From: a virus
Lineage: Duplodnaviria > Heunggongvirae > Uroviricota > Caudoviricetes
Reading direction: 5' to 3' (one strand)
IMG/VR virus record: IMGVR_UViG_2512047041_000009
Location: 1 to 37,224 of that record
DNA length: 37,224 nucleotides
Part shown: positions 27,001 through 33,000 of the stretch, piece by piece
How positions within the stretch are numbered: the stretch's first letter is position 1
Layout of the letters: every line of letters starts with the position of its first letter
Program-made: the position numbers

Positions 27001-30000
27001 CAGAGGGTAACTGATGGTGTAGCTACGCCCCTGTAGTTCGCACACGACTTTCTGGCTTTCAGCGTTGACTAGGCAAACCCGCAGAACGTGACCGTTGCTG
27101 GTGGCGAACCACTGCCCCACACGGGGGCAACGGTTGTATCGGTGATACAGGGAATTAACGATGTGGCGGATCATGGACGCACCTCCGCCGTAGTTACGTA
27201 TTTAACCGGGCTACCTTTCATTGAGATGGTTTCACACATCTCTGCCGCTTTCAGTTCCGCTGTTTTTCTGGATTTATAGCGACGGTGCCAGACAGATACA
27301 TCCGTGCGAACTGATACATCGTTTCTGTATTCCGTAGTGGAGATGATGATTTCGTAACTAATCATGGGCGAACCTCCTTGTCAGAACCATTCAGCCTGGA
27401 ATCAACAAGTGCAGCGCCAAAAACAGCATCACCAACACGGTCGTACAGTTTGCTAGCCAGCGGAGATTCAACGGCCTTAAGCATTGGATAAAGCTGGCTT
27501 GTCCAGATTTGATGGATTTCACGCAAATGCAGGTATACGCCTCTGGCGTTTCGTGCGACAGCTGACATATCAACCGCGTCAGCACCAGATAAATTCTTCT
27601 CCATCTGGTTAAAGGCGTTGATGTATGCCTCTTTGAACCGGGCTGCACGTTTGCCAGTAAAGCCCATAGCAAGGAACGCGAAGCCATCGCGGGTGATTTG
27701 ATAGCAAGGTAGTTTGCGGCCTGTGCAATCGGTGTAATCACTGGGCTGAAAATTCAGCTCAGTGAATTCAACAGAGCACTCAAGCGTCTGGATTTTTTGA
27801 ATAACGTTTTTGTGCTGCTTGCAGAAATATTCGGCAACGGCCAAAGAAGAGGTAACAGCCTTCCCATGGATAACATCAATTTTAGGGTGAGTTTGGGTAG
27901 GGGTGGTTGCCATAGTGACATCCTCATGTGCGAATTTTGAAAACTCACCACATGGGACGCCAATCACAGAGGTGGTGAGACGTACAGGGTTGGCGTAACC
28001 GGTCGCACATGACCCCGGCGCATCTTTCGATGCCCCTGCACGCCCCACCATAATTTGGATGTGAGGAAACGTGCGCAAAAAAACCGCTGAAGCGCGGTTA
28101 TGCGCATGTGCGAATTTCAGGACGCCAATCCCGGCACCCGCTTTATAAGGTGCGGAGACAGTGTAACGTCCCGAAATTGCAGAATCAATATTTGGTCTTG
28201 AAATGATCATATAGCTGCTGATATCTTTAGAACTGTTCTTGGATGTTTCGGAGCCGTTTTATGCGAAACAGCTCCCCGTTATTGATGTTGAGTGAGCCGG
28301 GTTACTCCCGGCTTTTTTTCACCGCTGCCAACCAATAACCTGAAATAACCCCATTTTCGGGTGATACCAGCGAGTCCCTCGCGGTTCTGCTTCCTCCATA
28401 ACCCGATAAAAAGCAGCCATAAACGGTTCCACAGCAACAATTGCGCGACGTGACAACAATCCGTCCGGCGTCATGAACTCATGGGTGTCTGTAGGAATTT
28501 GATAGGCGTTCACCAGATTGCGGCATTTATCATCTGACAAACCGGTTTTTGCTTTCAGTTGGCGATATCCGGCATAGCCCTCACGAATAGTGCCCTTTTT
28601 AATTTGCTCGACTGTTTCAGCAACGTGGCTGACTTTTTCTTCCACCTGAGTGATCCGTTTCTGTTGGCGAACGGCTTCAAGAGCCATCGCGGCAACCATT
28701 TCGATTTCGCTCATTGGCTTACGGATCTGTTCTTCCAGTTCGCGCCAGCGATCTACCAGGCGAGATGTGAATTCAGGACAGAGCTGTGCGACGACAATGA
28801 TGCTGTCGCGCTTACCTCGTTCACCTTCGAATACATACGCGCTAGAAAATCGGCGAGGCCCAAGTGATTGTTTATTCTCAATTTCCACAGTCTGTGGAAA
28901 TTGGATGATTCCCTTTTTAGCCAGTGTTTCAATAGTTCTCTTAACACTATCTGGTCGGCTTCCCACCAGCTCTGCGATCTCAACGCTGGTCATGGATGCT
29001 TTGCCGTTAAAAATTGCGGTGTTCATTGTTGGTCTCCTGTGGGCTTGTCATCTTCTGTATTCGCTAGACTTGGGTGTGTATATGGAATGCTCGGATCCAG
29101 ATGACAAAGAATGGCAACATCCTCCGGAACACCTCGCGTTTTCCACTTTCCAACACCTTGACTGCCACGAGGCCTTCCTTTCTTTGGGAACCTGCGACCA
29201 ATAGCGGCATTGGTTTTAAATTGAATTTTTAATATTTCATAAAGGGTCATTCTTTAGTCTCACACCAGATACTTTGTTATTCAACGATGTTAACCACAGG
29301 AATCCAAAGTATCAAGAAATTCTGTTACTTTAGTATCAACAGCCATGAGAGGAGAAGAAAAATGAAGTCTTTAGGTGAACGTCTCATCAACGCACGGCAA
29401 AAAGCTGGGTTAACACAAGATGCGTTGGCTAAAAAAGCTGGGATCACCAGAGTTGCAATCAGTAAAGCCGAGCAAGGCCTTACAAAAAGTTTCAACGGTG
29501 ACACCCTTTTTAAAGTTGCAGCTGCACTGCGGTGTTCACCGCAGTGGCTTCAGAACGGAGATGAAAAAGATAAGCATTGGGAAAATAATGTTAAGAGCTG
29601 CCCACAGAGAGACACAGCACACTCTTACCCTGTAATTAACTGGGTTCAGGCAGGATTATTCGCAACTTCTGGTGATGACTACAACATGTATGATCAGGAT
29701 AGTTGGAGGCATTCTGTAAAATACGCTGGTGAGAGGGGGTTCTGGCTGGAAGTGCACGGAGACTCAATGACTTCGCCCGTAGGAATAACATTTCCTGAAG
29801 GAATGTCGATCCTTGTCAACCCAGATAAAGAAGTTTTTTCAGGGTGTTACGTCATCGCCAGAAAAAAATCTACCAATGAAGCAACATTCAAAAAATATAT
29901 TTCTGACATGGGAAAGGCGTTTCTAAAGCCCCTTAATCCACAATATCCAATCATAGAAATGGACAATGATTGCGAAATAGTAGGTGTTGTGGTTGATGCC

Positions 30001-33000
30001 AGGTGGGATATTTTCTGACCAGACACAAAACACAAAAAGAAACCAAAGTATCAAAAATCACTTGCCACACCTTGATACCTTAGTTACCATAAAACAAAGT
30101 TCGTAACTGAGGTATCATCTCATGATCAATAAAGCTACAACTCTTGACTGTCTCGAAGAACTGAAAAACCTCGGCAGCCTCATTACACTAATAGCAAAAG
30201 CAACACCTGATGCTACGCTCTCTAGCGATATAGAGTCATGCGCAGGACTGGCATGGGATATGACAAATAGCATATCCAGAAAGCTATCGTCAGCAATGCT
30301 TTTACAGAACAAAAATTCTGCAATCAACACCCGTCTTCGCACCCAACGCGAAGCCTGCGGCTTAACAACCGCCGAACTCGCCAGGCTGCTCGATCTCGAT
30401 GAAGAAATTATCATCCAGTGGGAGAGCGGAGAGTATGAACCAACTATCAGTATGCTTATCCCACTGGCAAATATTCTTGGCTGCGATCCGATGTGGCTGT
30501 TAACTGGTGAGGTTACTCCTCCGGAGCAACCAAAAAGTGAGGAGCAGCAACACCATGACGCATCTCAACAAGTTTGCCCCTTATCTCGCGAAGCTCTTCT
30601 ACGGAAGAACCAATACCAATGGTGACATAATCGCCGCTTCGCCCCTCAAGGTACATGCGAACATTTTTATCAATCATTGCGGAAACAGTCTCAATATGAA
30701 AACACTTCTGAGACTCGCTATATAGCAGAACATATAAGTCAGCTGAGGAAACCATGAAAAAGTTCGAAAACATAACTGTTCTCCATGTTGATGACTTTGA
30801 TTATACAAACCCGGAACTTCTCCCGGAGGTTGTAAAGGCAATAGATGTTGCCGATATAGTGATTAGAGAAAAGAGAATTGTCAAAAACAGGCTCGTATGC
30901 ACTTCAGGAGCAATGACAGAAACAACCTCACAGCAAGATAATTACGAAGGCATTTGCCTGGAGCCTGATTCATTTGCGGTAAATGTTTATCATTTATTGC
31001 ATGCAACACAGGTATTACATATGTCCAGTAATCACGAAACGAAAACACTCGGCAGCGAAATTCTGAGTTTTGCATGTGAGTATACAAAAGCTGCTGCCGA
31101 AAAAGAATTAGCGCAATAACAACAAATATGCCCTGAACGTTTATTGCGGTTTTATCGCCGGGGATTGTTACAACCTTAAACCACAGGAGGCTTTATTGTG
31201 ACTTTTATAAAGAATATGGCATCACACAAGACCGCCTGCCTTATTGCACAATACGGTGAAAATTACATGCATATTGCCTGCTTATTTCTGCGTAAAGCAT
31301 ACGGGAGATAATAATGCATCAGAAAACAGCAGAACACGAACAAACCAGAATATTGCTGACCATCAAAAACGGGAAAGTAATATTCATTCGCCATGTTCAT
31401 GACGATGAACTTGTAGGAACTCTTTCAACATTCCTGTTTATTGCAGAAAAGGCAGGATATGACGTTATTGCACCAGCAGATGAAGATGAAGATGAGGAAT
31501 AAATATCATGCAATACGATGAATTCCAGGCTGAAGCAACAGCCAATGGTATACGAACTGGCAGTATGACGATTGATTATCACGACGCCATACGTCGTCTG
31601 GATGCCGGAGAATTCGATACTCCTAATGTGCGAGGTTTACGTATCCTTCAGTGTCTGGCGCAAGCCGACGAAGCAGGATTACTGGGTAAACTTCCGGTTG
31701 AGATGAAGGTTGCTCAGTGGCGATGGTTGTATGTGACGACATTCATCAACGAAGAAGAAGACAAGAACGGCACAATTGATATCCTGAATGAACACGGAAC
31801 AACTGAACACGCCGTGGTATATAACGGGATGTATGGGTTTATGACGATATATCCCGGCCCCATTCGATTTGCCTTACAACAGTATATTGAATGGAATTTA
31901 ATTCAAAAATACGGCGAAACTGAAGGAATGGGAAGAGCGCTGTTTCTTTATCAGAAAATGCTCACTACTTCCCCTGATAAAGGTTTCATTCTTTCAGATA
32001 TGGGTCGAGAAGGGCTTGAAATCCTTCTGGATGAAATTATTAACGAAATGAATACTCATGGCATGCAATCCGAAACAGATATTAAGTAAAAGGGACCACA
32101 TGACCGTTATCGAGTATATCCAGGAAAATCCAGATTGCAGTAGAGAAGATATATCCCTCGCACTTGGAAGAAGCGCAACTTCTATCAGTAATGAATTATC
32201 ACGGTTATTGTGGAATGGGTTAATAGTACGAACTGGAGAAAAAAACAAAATGATTCTGTACTGCGTAAACAATCTGCCGTTTGGATACAGCAATCCCCTA
32301 AGTGTTATGTTCAACCAGTTACTTAAACAGGTAAGAAATGGCAACTGACTCACAACTAACCATAGAAACGGCCCTGAATGTCGGCCTGGCGCTCCTTGGT
32401 TATTTTTACATCGTGTTCTGCAGCGGACGGTGGCTGTCGCTGTTGTTCCTGAAAAAATGGAATAAACGCCGTAAGCAGGATGAACGCCAGAAGGCAATGA
32501 ATGCGTTTTCCGAAGCCTTCGGAATTGACGGCATGGAACCAGGGGATCCAGCTCGCGCAATCAGCAGAGGGGGTGTAGTAATCCTTGTATATCGGAGTGA
32601 AGAGAAAAATGACGATCACAAAACAACGAGTAGAAAAAATCATATATCGCCATGAAATGGGACTGAACAGCGATGTCACTGCCGAAGAGGTTTATGACCT
32701 GGCTGTACTGGCGCTGAATTTATCAAATATCGCAAACCTGAAGCGATACGAGCTTGATATGGATGGTTGCGACTCGTGCGGTCAGGATTGTGGCGCAGAT
32801 ATGACTGAAGATCCTGATGGTGATTATGTCCTGTTTGATGACGTGGTTAAGTTGTTTGAATTTGATACAACCACTCAAAAGTTAGAAATCCCGGCAAAGG
32901 AGGCTGCCAGTGAGCAAGATTGACTATCAGGCACTGCGCGAGGCGGCGGAACAGGCAACGCAAGATGAATGGGTAGCATATATTATGCCGGGTCATAACG

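Follow-up and report, generated by a model that had tools for sequence, protein, structure and literature searches.

In a 37,224-bp stretch of viral DNA (the window), the heptamer GTATCAA/TTGATAC recurs on both sides of a cI repressor gene, which raises the question of whether the copies are operators and, if so, which regulator they serve. A sequence-only reading had taken them for half-sites of CI-controlled promoters on both flanks. We put at roughly 85% the probability that a lambdoid E. coli prophage with phiP27-type immunity has its immunity region here, an ordinary lysis-lysogeny switch in which CI dimers bind six 18-bp two-fold-symmetric operators with the consensus TTGATAC-N4-GTATCAA.

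The gene order is lambda-like. Leftward lie the cro-position gene, a Rha/Ant-like gene (28319-29026), whose start is overlapped by the stop of the cro-position gene, and replication genes; rightward lie an HTH gene, a MarR-like gene and others, towards a 428-aa ORF at the end of the window that is only presumed to be an integrase. The cI/cro-position intergenic region spans 29251-29361 (111 bp), and 30019-30121 (103 bp) separates the cI stop from the next ATG, so that ORF and sequence positions confirm the limits given earlier for both regions. No ORF of at least 30 codons was found in the ORF listing wholly between the cI stop (30018) and the first operator beyond it (30037); the ORFs listed there are short and overlap cI or the operators. 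For this reason, the earlier comparison with P22 and 434, in which cI is directly sandwiched, is correct. The features are collected in Table 1.

Table 1. Genes, predicted promoters and predicted operators of the immunity region (window coordinates).
Feature	Coordinates	Strand	Remarks
cro-position gene, 75 aa	29023..29250	-	ORF; first gene of leftward early (PR-like) operon
ORa, CAGATAC TTTG TTATTCA	29266..29283		cro-proximal; weakest match in the window (right half TTATT)
PR-like sigma-70 promoter	29287..29315	-	-35 TTGATA (29315-29310), 17-bp spacer, -10 TAACAT (29292-29287); consensus match only
ORb, AGGAATC CAAA GTATCAA	29298..29315		overlaps -35 and spacer of PR-like promoter
ORc, CTGTTAC TTTA GTATCAA	29322..29339		cI-proximal; highest PWM score in the window
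cI repressor gene, 218 aa	29362..30018	+	N-terminal HTH_3, C-terminal Peptidase_S24
OLa, AAGAAAC CAAA GTATCAA	30037..30054		19 bp past cI stop; upstream of PL-like -35
PL-like sigma-70 promoter	30062..30090	+	-35 TTGCCA, 17-bp spacer, -10 TACCAT
OLb, TTGATAC CTTA GTTACCA	30072..30089		on spacer and -10 of PL-like promoter
OLc, TCGTAAC TGAG GTATCAT	30101..30118		just downstream of predicted PL start
167-aa protein gene	30122..30625	+	C-terminal HTH_3; first gene of rightward (PL-like) operon

The exact heptamer occurs nine times in the window, and four of these copies (29309+, 29333+, 30048+ and 30072-) fall within the 214 bp of the two cI flanks, or 0.57% of the window (binomial P = 1.3e-7). 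The sequence-only reading had counted three copies per side; the exact heptamer is present twice per side, and what the third copy retains is the GTATC core. The third OR copy reads CAAAGTATC (minus strand, 29268-29276) and continues with TG instead of AA, and the third OL copy is GGTATCAT at 30111-30118, ending 3 bp ahead of the ATG at 30122, just before the next gene start as had been noted. The extended form CAAAGTATCAA occurs twice (29305 and 30044), and CAAAGTATC has three occurrences and is absent from the rest of the window. GTATC cores behave similarly, with 6 of 74 in the same 214 bp (P = 4.8e-6). For all six, the 5-mer at a distance of exactly 4 bp matches the dyad partner in at least three of five positions, which is the case for 5.9% of the 68 cores elsewhere (P about 4e-8).

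Each repeated copy is thus the stronger half of an 18-bp dyad, TTGATAC-N4-GTATCAA, and the search for the full palindrome that had been suggested earlier gives six separate dyads, three in each region (ORa-c at 29266-29339 and OLa-c at 30037-30118), which supports the assignment of the heptamer as an operator half-site. In an exhaustive dyad search (1024 pentamers, gaps of 0-12 bp), only GATAC-N4-GTATC gave six matches in the two regions. With a PWM built from relatives, the six top scores of the 37-kb window are exactly the six sites. At 10.1 bits, ORa does not surpass the best chance matches (shuffled sequence has a mean maximum of 12.7); it is counted as an operator only on account of where it lies and of its better orthologues, GATAC-TTAA-GTATC in relative L003 and GATAC-TCTG-TTATC in phiP27. 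The OLa counterpart in another relative, L068, is GATAC-TTTA-GTATC, with perfect arms. Half-site positions G3, A6 and C7 are each found in 11 of the 12 half-sites, and G..AC-N4-GT..C is very likely the essential core, a judgement made jointly with the main reading. The centre is A/T-rich in five of six sites (TTTG, CAAA, TTTA, CAAA, CTTA; that of OLc is TGAG) and probably not contacted. Central bases of P22 and 434 operators are recognised by indirect readout, and affinity rises when they include A-tracts (PMC3317979).

The repressor itself combines two known domains. It matches Pfam HTH_3 (1.7e-14) and Peptidase_S24 (2.9e-22), and among PDB entries it matches lambda CI at 1.2e-33 over residues 12-215, the C-terminal domain giving E values of 1e-31 to 1e-33. 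The N-terminal domain matches 434 Cro and the P22 c2 N-terminal domain at about 1e-8; its homology to P22 c2, 434 repressor and 434 Cro bears out the earlier comparison with P22/434-type immunity regions. Gln-Ala-Gly (96-98), Ser135 in GDSM and Lys177/178 in FKK align with the cleavage and catalytic residues of lambda CI; judged from this alignment, the Ala-Gly cleavage site and the catalytic Ser and Lys are intact.

Comparison with relatives shows that conservation is concentrated in the half-sites. In L068, with 86% amino-acid identity in cI and 75.5% nucleotide identity, 54 of 60 half-site core bases are identical (90%), vs. 81 of 157 other intergenic bases (52%; Fisher P = 5e-8). Among 23 and 27 unique relatives, variation sits between the operators and in the N4 centres. 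Prophages of Photorhabdus and Klebsiella whose cI shares the recognition helix of the window, TRVAISKAE, yield the same dyad de novo on both sides of cI, no obvious counterpart of OLc being found in the Klebsiella relative. Relatives with an altered recognition helix have altered half-sites in an unchanged 5-N4-5 layout: GAAAC-N4-GTTTC with SRVTISKIE in Providencia, TAAAC-N4-GTTTA with SRMAISKIE in L070, and TTAAG-type sites with SNAAISQWE in P22-like loci.

Promoter-like sequences lie on both cI flanks, as the sequence-only reading had predicted. The -35 of the leftward PR-like promoter lies within ORb, and ORa begins 3 bp downstream of the -10 and therefore covers the predicted start site. 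On the rightward PL-like promoter, TTG and TA...T are preserved in all relatives. A Photorhabdus locus (L084) has equivalent promoters in the same places relative to its operators, TTGATA-17-TAGATT with the -35 in the middle operator, which is the PR-like layout of the window, and TTGACA-17-TACATT on the PL-like side; this corroborates the promoter placement. The promoter scan did not find PRM hexamers, candidate PRM -10 words are not conserved across relatives, and PRM was not located with confidence; ORc, 22 bp ahead of the cI ATG, occupies the place that PRM would need. Taken on sequence, the view that the sites form CI-controlled promoters on both sides is supported.

Could the repeats simply reflect the composition of A/T-rich intergenic DNA, or be direct repeats of 7-11 bp, each read on its own and not as part of a dyad? 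Window-wide, the exact heptamer is barely above shuffled sequence (9 vs. 3.9 ± 2.0, with 2 of 100 shuffles reaching 9), GATAC-N4-GTATC with up to two mismatches is marginally enriched (15 vs. 9.4), and four of the six strong halves are oriented alike. The signal, however, is the clustering and not the total count. The sequence-only reading had named a similar density of repeats across the window as the outcome that would speak against it, and the clustering excludes chance. Every site has a matching partner half-site, the cores of the half-sites are selectively conserved, and the same dyad recurs in three genera; a chance or compositional origin was rejected on these grounds and is exceedingly unlikely. 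It is quite unlikely that the dyads are real and serve mainly or only another regulator of the module, the 75-aa cro-position protein or the 167-aa HTH protein. Within the E. coli clade, both genes move with cI as a module (cro-like 84-96%, downstream HTH 80-95%, cI 86-97% identity), the 167-aa protein matches HTH_3 (3.8e-11) and PHROGs 4739 (unknown function) and 4836 ('CII-like regulator'), and Cro shares operators with CI in lambdoid phages. Nevertheless, the Photorhabdus and Klebsiella relatives retain GATAC-N4-GTATC on both sides of cI without the downstream HTH gene, and Providencia has a similar HTH gene with different half-sites. The half-sites follow the recognition helix of CI, whereas the cro-position protein keeps its central segment (SQGVGKW..RGVPEDVAILCH) nearly unchanged between loci whose half-sites differ. 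Use of the same sites by a Cro-like protein is compatible with CI as the main ligand and is not a competing explanation. The 75-aa protein has no Pfam or NCBIfam match, matches PHROG 4749 (unknown function), and is encoded divergently from an HTH+S24 cI in Escherichia, Photorhabdus, Klebsiella and Providencia. Its AF2 model (pLDDT 85) is all-helical, and the best PDB folds are Cro proteins (5w8y, 3bd1), with non-significant E values of 0.8-4 and TM of about 0.5. The label Cro is therefore putative, drawn only from position and a weak fold match.

For the cluster downstream of cI, the main function could also lie in the RNA: in transcripts reading through from cI, OLb and OLc would pair as a 15-bp hairpin and either mask the ribosome-binding site of the gene that follows or pause transcription, with operator likeness secondary. 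OLc is a near-exact inverted repeat of OLb; the predicted stem comes to -19 kcal/mol as a consensus, and folding of the 141-nt region gives z = -2.8. Lying in the 3' arm, the GAGG Shine-Dalgarno sequence of the following gene overlaps the central 4 bp of OLc, and the window clade lacks the intrinsic terminator that cross-genus relatives carry between cI and the OL region. Against this, none of the 15 pairs shows compensatory changes in eight relatives, the two equivalent Photorhabdus operators are both kept as dyads though not mutually complementary, OLa is conserved though outside the hairpin, and the PL-like promoter lies exactly over OLb. Two similar near-palindromes are, moreover, complementary to each other automatically. 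An RNA-level role as the main function is very unlikely.

We assume that the CI-operator switch works as follows. CI, with its P22 c2/434-like HTH domain and lambda-CI-like self-cleaving and oligomerising S24 domain, would in the lysogen occupy ORb and ORa and block the leftward early promoter at its -35 and start site. CI at OLb, aided by OLa and OLc, would block the rightward early promoter, since OLb spans its spacer and -10. ORc, beside the cI start, may provide negative autoregulation, and from its placement at ORb, CI could activate the maintenance promoter of cI in the way lambda CI acts from OR2. Upon DNA damage, RecA-assisted self-cleavage at Ala97-Gly98 would open both promoters, and the 75-aa protein may bind these operators in the role of Cro. 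Among the OR sites, ORc (cI-proximal) fits the consensus best and ORa (cro-proximal) worst; if affinity follows, this reverses the lambda order and the switch logic may differ in detail. Looping may contribute; cooperativity of adjacent dimers at OL is uncertain because the operator centres there are 35 and 29 bp apart (3.3 and 2.8 helical turns), as against 20-24 bp in a lambda-like arrangement.

Among known systems, P22 immC (c2, OR1-3/OL1-3, cro) is similar in its homologous N-terminal HTH (about 1e-8; PDB 1adr, 2r1j, 3jxb), in having cI directly between OR and OL, and in its three sites per side. P22 operators are 18 bp long, two 7-bp half-sites flanking a 4-bp centre, as in the window, and the same search also brought up P22-c2-like relatives of the window cI (46% identity), which have TTAAG-type sites on both flanks. 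The half-site (TTAAG-type vs. TTGATAC) and the recognition helix (SNVAISQWE vs. TRVAISKAE) differ, and the window thus represents a different immunity specificity. Furthermore, P22 Cro is unrelated in sequence to the cro-position protein, the N-like gene 24 is first in PL where the window has the HTH gene, and the OL spacings of the window are wider.

With lambda the window shares the strongly homologous S24 domain with its Ala-Gly site and Ser and Lys residues, cI divergent from an early rightward-type operon, and a tripartite OR with 24-bp spacing of the two cI-proximal sites, a second tripartite cluster lying at the other early promoter. Unlike lambda, it has no rexA/rexB between cI and OL (OR-OL distance about 0.75 kb vs. 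about 2.4 kb), its operators differ in sequence and length (18 bp vs. 17 bp), its OL sites lie one upstream of the promoter core, one within it and one downstream of the start, and its sites seem to rank in the opposite order of quality, the cI-proximal one being best. The window also lacks an N gene, and the 167-aa protein is not an N-type antiterminator; N is reported absent from P27 as well (PMC3430580).

Genes L10-L12 of the Stx2e phage phiP27 (95.5% nucleotide identity) and the related immunity regions of Stx1a and Stx2a phages (about 86%) represent the same module with all six operators in place, phiP27 differing by an extra ORF (L13) between the Rha-like and cro-position genes. An identical module is found in 194 complete E. 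coli genomes, including ST131. The records examined annotate only genes in this stretch, no description of the module's operators was found in the searchable literature (the phiP27 genome paper lies outside that search), and the operator sequence appears to be previously undescribed. Phages 933W and H-19B are likewise E. coli prophages with lambdoid CI/operator switches. Their operator number is unlike that of lambda, with three OR and two OL sites in 933W and four OR sites in H-19B (PMC8065619, PMC3317979); the window has the canonical 3 + 3 and is unrelated to 933W in both repressor and operator sequences.

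Repeats of GTATCAA/TTGATAC lie on both sides of the cI-like gene, and the sequence-only reading, which took them for operators of CI-controlled promoters, is well supported by the present analysis, the switch being an ordinary lambdoid one. Three copies per side had been claimed; the clustered repeats are real, but each side holds two exact copies, and its third copy is degenerate. Nine exact matches to the heptamer are found in the window, four of them in the two intergenic regions (29309+, 29333+, 30048+ and 30072-), and the degenerate third copy reads CAAAGTATC on the OR side (29268, minus strand) and GGTATCAT on the OL side (30111). 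The window-wide total of the exact heptamer is marginally high (9 vs. 3.9 +/- 2.0 in shuffles). The repeat observation can nevertheless be regarded as real with the corrected copy number, since the clustering, unlike the total, is not marginal: four of the nine heptamers fall within 0.57% of the sequence (P = 1.3e-7), as do six of the 74 GTATC cores inside the same two intergenic regions of 214 bp (P = 4.8e-6). These values also answer the objection that such repeats might occur at similar density by chance.

Each strong half is paired with a weaker partner across a 4-bp centre, which gives six 18-bp predicted operators, ORa, ORb and ORc between cI and the divergent gene and OLa, OLb and OLc 3' of cI. 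Positions G3, A6 and C7 of the half-site are each carried by 11 of the 12 half-sites. Because the dyad was first derived by eye, unbiased tests were run. All 1024 pentamers X were enumerated as X-N(0-12)-revcomp(X) with at most two mismatches, and GATAC with a gap of 4 was the sole dyad having six matches across the two regions, the runner-up being its one-base variant GAAAC, also with a gap of 4. The full palindromic operator, anticipated earlier from the repeats, is thus recovered as a GATAC-N4 dyad with three sites on either side of cI. At the 68 GTATC/GATAC cores outside the regions, the 5-mer 4 bp off agrees with the dyad partner at a mean of 1.09 of 5 positions; a match of at least 3/5 is seen in 5.9% of these cores vs. 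all six intergenic cores (3-4 matches, P about 4e-8). Taken together, the shuffles, the clustering P values, the dyad enumeration and the partner half-site test rule out chance clustering of the repeats.

A PWM built solely from the relatives' sites was scanned over the whole window. Its top six scores are exactly the six operator positions, five of them above the mean shuffle maximum, and the rest of the window holds no further operator-like site above background: the scores that follow in rank (33038, 27904 and 20239; 9.0-9.5 bits) are under the mean shuffle maximum. ORa, with 10.1 bits, is not above that maximum either and is kept as a site on the grounds of its position and orthology rather than its score. 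The right half of ORa in the window (29277-29281) is TTATT, a minority allele that a few fetched loci also carry; TTATC is the majority form in the relatives, and GTATC is seen in one Stx2a phage. The TTATT change falls on the nearly invariant half-site C and, as judged from the sequence, should make the cro-proximal operator weaker. Measured between centres, neighbouring operators are 32 and 24 bp apart in OR and 35 and 29 bp apart in OL; ORc and OLa are 715 bp apart, and the separation of OR and OL is about 0.75 kb.

Features of the immunity region and its neighbourhood (coordinates in the window; promoters from a consensus scan, operators predicted)
Feature	Coordinates	Strand	Description
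Minus strand past cro-position gene		-	Rha/Ant-like gene, then second Rha-type gene, then replication genes
cro-position gene	29250-29023	-	75 aa, divergent from cI
cI / cro-position intergenic region	29251-29361		non-coding, 111 bp
ORa	29266-29283		CAGATAC-TTTG-TTATTCA
PR-like promoter	29315-29287	-	TTGATA-17-TAACAT
ORb	29298-29315		AGGAATC-CAAA-GTATCAA
ORc	29322-29339		CTGTTAC-TTTA-GTATCAA
cI-like gene	29362-30018	+	218 aa, HTH_3 + Peptidase_S24
cI stop to next gene region	30019-30121		non-coding, 103 bp
OLa	30037-30054		AAGAAAC-CAAA-GTATCAA
PL-like promoter	30062-30090	+	TTGCCA-17-TACCAT
OLb	30072-30089		TTGATAC-CTTA-GTTACCA; full form GATACCTTAGTTAC
OLc	30101-30118		TCGTAAC-TGAG-GTATCAT; full form GTAACTGAGGTATC
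First PL gene	30122-30625	+	167 aa, HTH_3
Plus strand beyond first PL gene	beyond 30625	+	further small genes, then 428-aa ORF (presumed integrase) at the window's end

The sites are conserved. All six are present in phiP27 and the Stx phages, and ORa of one Stx2a phage is a perfect GATAC-TTAA-GTATC. Among 23 distinct OR and 27 distinct OL sequences, the variable columns lie between the operators and in the 4-bp centres. The most diverged close relative (L068; cI 86% identical in amino acids, 75.5% nucleotide identity) keeps 54 of 60 core positions vs. 81 of 157 in the rest of the intergenic sequence (Fisher P = 5e-8), and its OLa has perfect arms.

The protein that would read these sites is, by its domains, a member of the CI (HTH + S24) repressor family. 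Pfam places HTH_3 at residues 10-63 (E 1.7e-14) and finds Peptidase_S24 with E 2.9e-22; in the PDB the N-terminal domain matches 434 Cro, P22 c2 and the 434 repressor at 1e-8 to 1e-4, and lambda CI aligns over the C-terminal two-thirds with E of 1e-31 to 1e-33. QAG (96-98), GDSM (Ser135) and FKK (Lys177/178) stand opposite VQAG, GNSM and FKK of lambda in the alignment with 3bdn and 2ho0. Since the cleavage-site and catalytic residues align with those of lambda CI, SOS-dependent self-cleavage is expected by homology.

Cross-genus loci, fetched starting from homologues of the cro-position protein, link the operators to this repressor. In Photorhabdus and Klebsiella prophages, the cI helix 3 is identical (TRVAISKAE) and the best de novo dyad is GATAC-N4-GTATC on both cI flanks. 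The helix is SRVTISKIE in a Providencia cI, whose sites are GAAAC-N4-GTTTC, and SRMAISKIE in L070 (51% identity), whose sites are TAAAC-N4-GTTTA. In relatives of 40-46% identity that carry the P22 c2 helix (SNAAISQWE), the sites are of the TTAAG type and P22 Cro is recognisable. Four helix variants thus correspond to four half-site variants with the N4 layout unchanged; on these alignments, the operator half-site changes along with the repressor recognition helix while the layout is constant. The 167-aa HTH protein encoded downstream was considered as another cognate binder and is ruled out by its presence/absence pattern across genera: its gene is absent from the Photorhabdus and Klebsiella loci, which keep the operators, and in the Providencia locus a similar HTH gene is accompanied by different half-sites.

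The proposal that promoters lie under the operators on both flanks agrees with the consensus scan, which predicts a PR-like promoter over ORb/ORa and a PL-like promoter over OLb. The PR-like -35 falls within ORb, and ORa starts 3 bp past the -10. On the other flank, OLb spans the spacer and the -10, OLa is directly upstream, and OLc is directly downstream of the start, predicted at about 30097. The same scan applied independently to Photorhabdus (L084) gives TTGATA-17-TAGATT and TTGACA-17-TACATT at equivalent places, and a second operator cluster with a promoter reading away from cI is kept across genera. Repressor bound at ORb/ORa and OLb would occlude both predicted early promoters, and such occlusion is the best-supported mechanism because the operator/promoter register is fixed across genera, although the promoters are consensus matches.

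ORc lies 22 bp upstream of the cI ATG, and its centre is 24 bp from that of ORb. Lambda OR2-OR3 has the same geometry as ORb-ORc. By analogy, this match in place and spacing suggests PRM autoregulation. No PRM hexamer pair passed the consensus scan, and the candidate -10 words within ORc, TAGTAT and TATCAA, are not kept in all relatives.

OLb and OLc (30072-30118) are near-perfect inverted repeats 15 nt apart, which as RNA give a 15-bp stem with a consensus of -19 kcal/mol (z = -2.8 for the 141-nt region). GAGG (30109-30112), the Shine-Dalgarno sequence of gene 30122, is predicted to be buried in the stem solely in transcripts begun upstream of about 30097. The window and its E. coli clade, in which OLb and OLc have become such repeats, have no intrinsic terminator after cI (30019-30040), so cI transcripts may read into the PL operon. 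In most cross-genus or more distant relatives, a GC-rich hairpin with a T-run separates the cI stop from the first OL site (Photorhabdus, Klebsiella, Providencia and P22-like loci; L084 1651-1668, L086, L070-L083). A dual use of OLb/OLc might be imagined on this basis, as CI operators in DNA and as an RBS-burying hairpin in the cI read-through RNA of the lysogen. The hairpin would leave the HTH regulator of the first PL gene untranslated even when co-transcribed with cI, and PL-initiated transcripts would begin inside the loop and hence be translatable. If true, this element together with the apparently reversed OR site quality and the missing N would amount to a variant switch logic. We consider this improbable: no compensatory changes in the stem are seen in 8 relatives, and the equivalent Photorhabdus operators are not complementary to each other. 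Operators of an ordinary lambdoid switch remain the preferred reading of OLb and OLc.

The 'Cro' label of the 75-aa protein remains positional. The protein has no Pfam or NCBIfam family, its PHROG is of unknown function, and its homologues form a conserved enterobacterial family without annotated function. The AF2 model is helical (pLDDT 85), and its top PDB matches in Foldseek are Cro proteins with non-significant E of 0.8-4. The central segment (SQGVGKW..RGVPEDVAILCH) shows little or no variation in Escherichia, Klebsiella, Yersinia, Photorhabdus, Providencia and Salmonella and is unchanged in loci whose operators differ in half-site, which is unusual for a Cro supposed to read CI's operators. 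The stop of its gene overlaps the ATG of the Rha/Ant-like gene (ATGA, 29023-29026), an overlap that points to coupled translation of a putative antirepressor-like protein with the first PR gene. On the same strand, Rfam detects the C4 antisense RNA (27968-28055, 75 bits) and the isrK Hfq-binding RNA (28077-28153, 62 bits) in the 5' third of a 282-aa ORF (28210-27362), at a Pfam Phage_ASH match that is followed by the Rha domain. From this arrangement, the PR-like operon appears to include an RNA-controlled antirepressor module of the P1 immI type, and the real protein start of the ORF may be near Met101.

The HTH part of gene 30122-30625 (30338-30494) is common, at 92-100% identity, to numerous E. 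coli prophages and phages that are otherwise unrelated, including phi467 ('DicA') and Stx2a phages, and the flanks are not common to them; this is a mosaic recombination joint within the gene. The homologue carries a second HTH domain in Stx1a/Stx2a phages, where it has 215-216 aa, and measures 138 aa in phiP27. Far from the immunity region, Rfam matches to AsxR (18259-18311, +), STnc100 (18315-18523, -) and two tRNAs (19403-19476 and 19489-19561, -) are typical of Stx-phage late regulatory regions.

Nothing conceptually new is added to the lambdoid paradigm. The results are of use mainly in giving the widespread phiP27 immunity type of E. coli and Stx phages an operator consensus, TTGATAC-N4-GTATCAA, together with six mapped sites and predicted promoters. 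Stx1a, Stx2a and Stx2e phages carry the module, as do prophages in about 190 complete E. coli genomes (ST131 among them), and the same dyad is found in Klebsiella and Photorhabdus relatives. The immunity grouping of these prophages, predictions of superinfection exclusion and studies of their induction become directly testable. In addition, the series of half-sites GATAC, GAAAC, TAAAC and TTAAG makes a small natural data set on specificity change in P22 c2-type helices.

The window is an E. coli prophage, and among the closest known systems is the Stx2e phage phiP27, to which 28900-30700 is 95.5% identical; several Stx1a and Stx2a phages reach about 86%. For 29000-30400, identity is at least 99% to 194 complete E. 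coli genomes, among them those of O25b:H4-ST131 strains. In phiP27 (L001, 4166-4837), an extra 672-bp hypothetical ORF, L13, lies on the opposite strand between the Rha/Ant-like and cro-position genes; it is missing from the window and from the Stx1a/Stx2a phages. No description of phiP27-type operators or operator strings was found in the searchable literature, the coverage of which does not extend to the phiP27 genome report. Operator number varies among Stx phages, with three OR and two OL in 933W and four OR in H-19B (PMC8065619), as opposed to the 3 + 3 predicted here. N is absent from phage P27 (PMC3430580), and the first PL gene of the window encodes an HTH_3 protein rather than the N-type antiterminator of N-dependent lambdoid early regulation.

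The view that cI is directly sandwiched as in P22 and 434 holds, as cI abuts OL in all three: no gene lies between the cI stop at 30018 and OLa, which starts at 30037, and 30019-30121 wholly contains no ORF of at least 30 codons, the short ORFs there overlapping cI or operators. Five of the six operators have A/T-rich centres, as do those of P22 and 434, where readout of the centre is indirect and affinity increases with A-tracts (PMC3317979). The working seems similar to that of P22 immC, but P22 specificity is absent, the half-site being TTGATAC instead of TTAAG-type and the helix TRVAISKAE instead of the c2-type SNVAISQWE; since both differ, the region represents another immunity type. The best consensus match is the cI-proximal ORc and the poorest is ORa, an order of site quality, by this measure, opposite to that of lambda. 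In general, with its lambdoid OR/OL architecture, the region appears to function like the immunity regions of P22, 434 and lambda.
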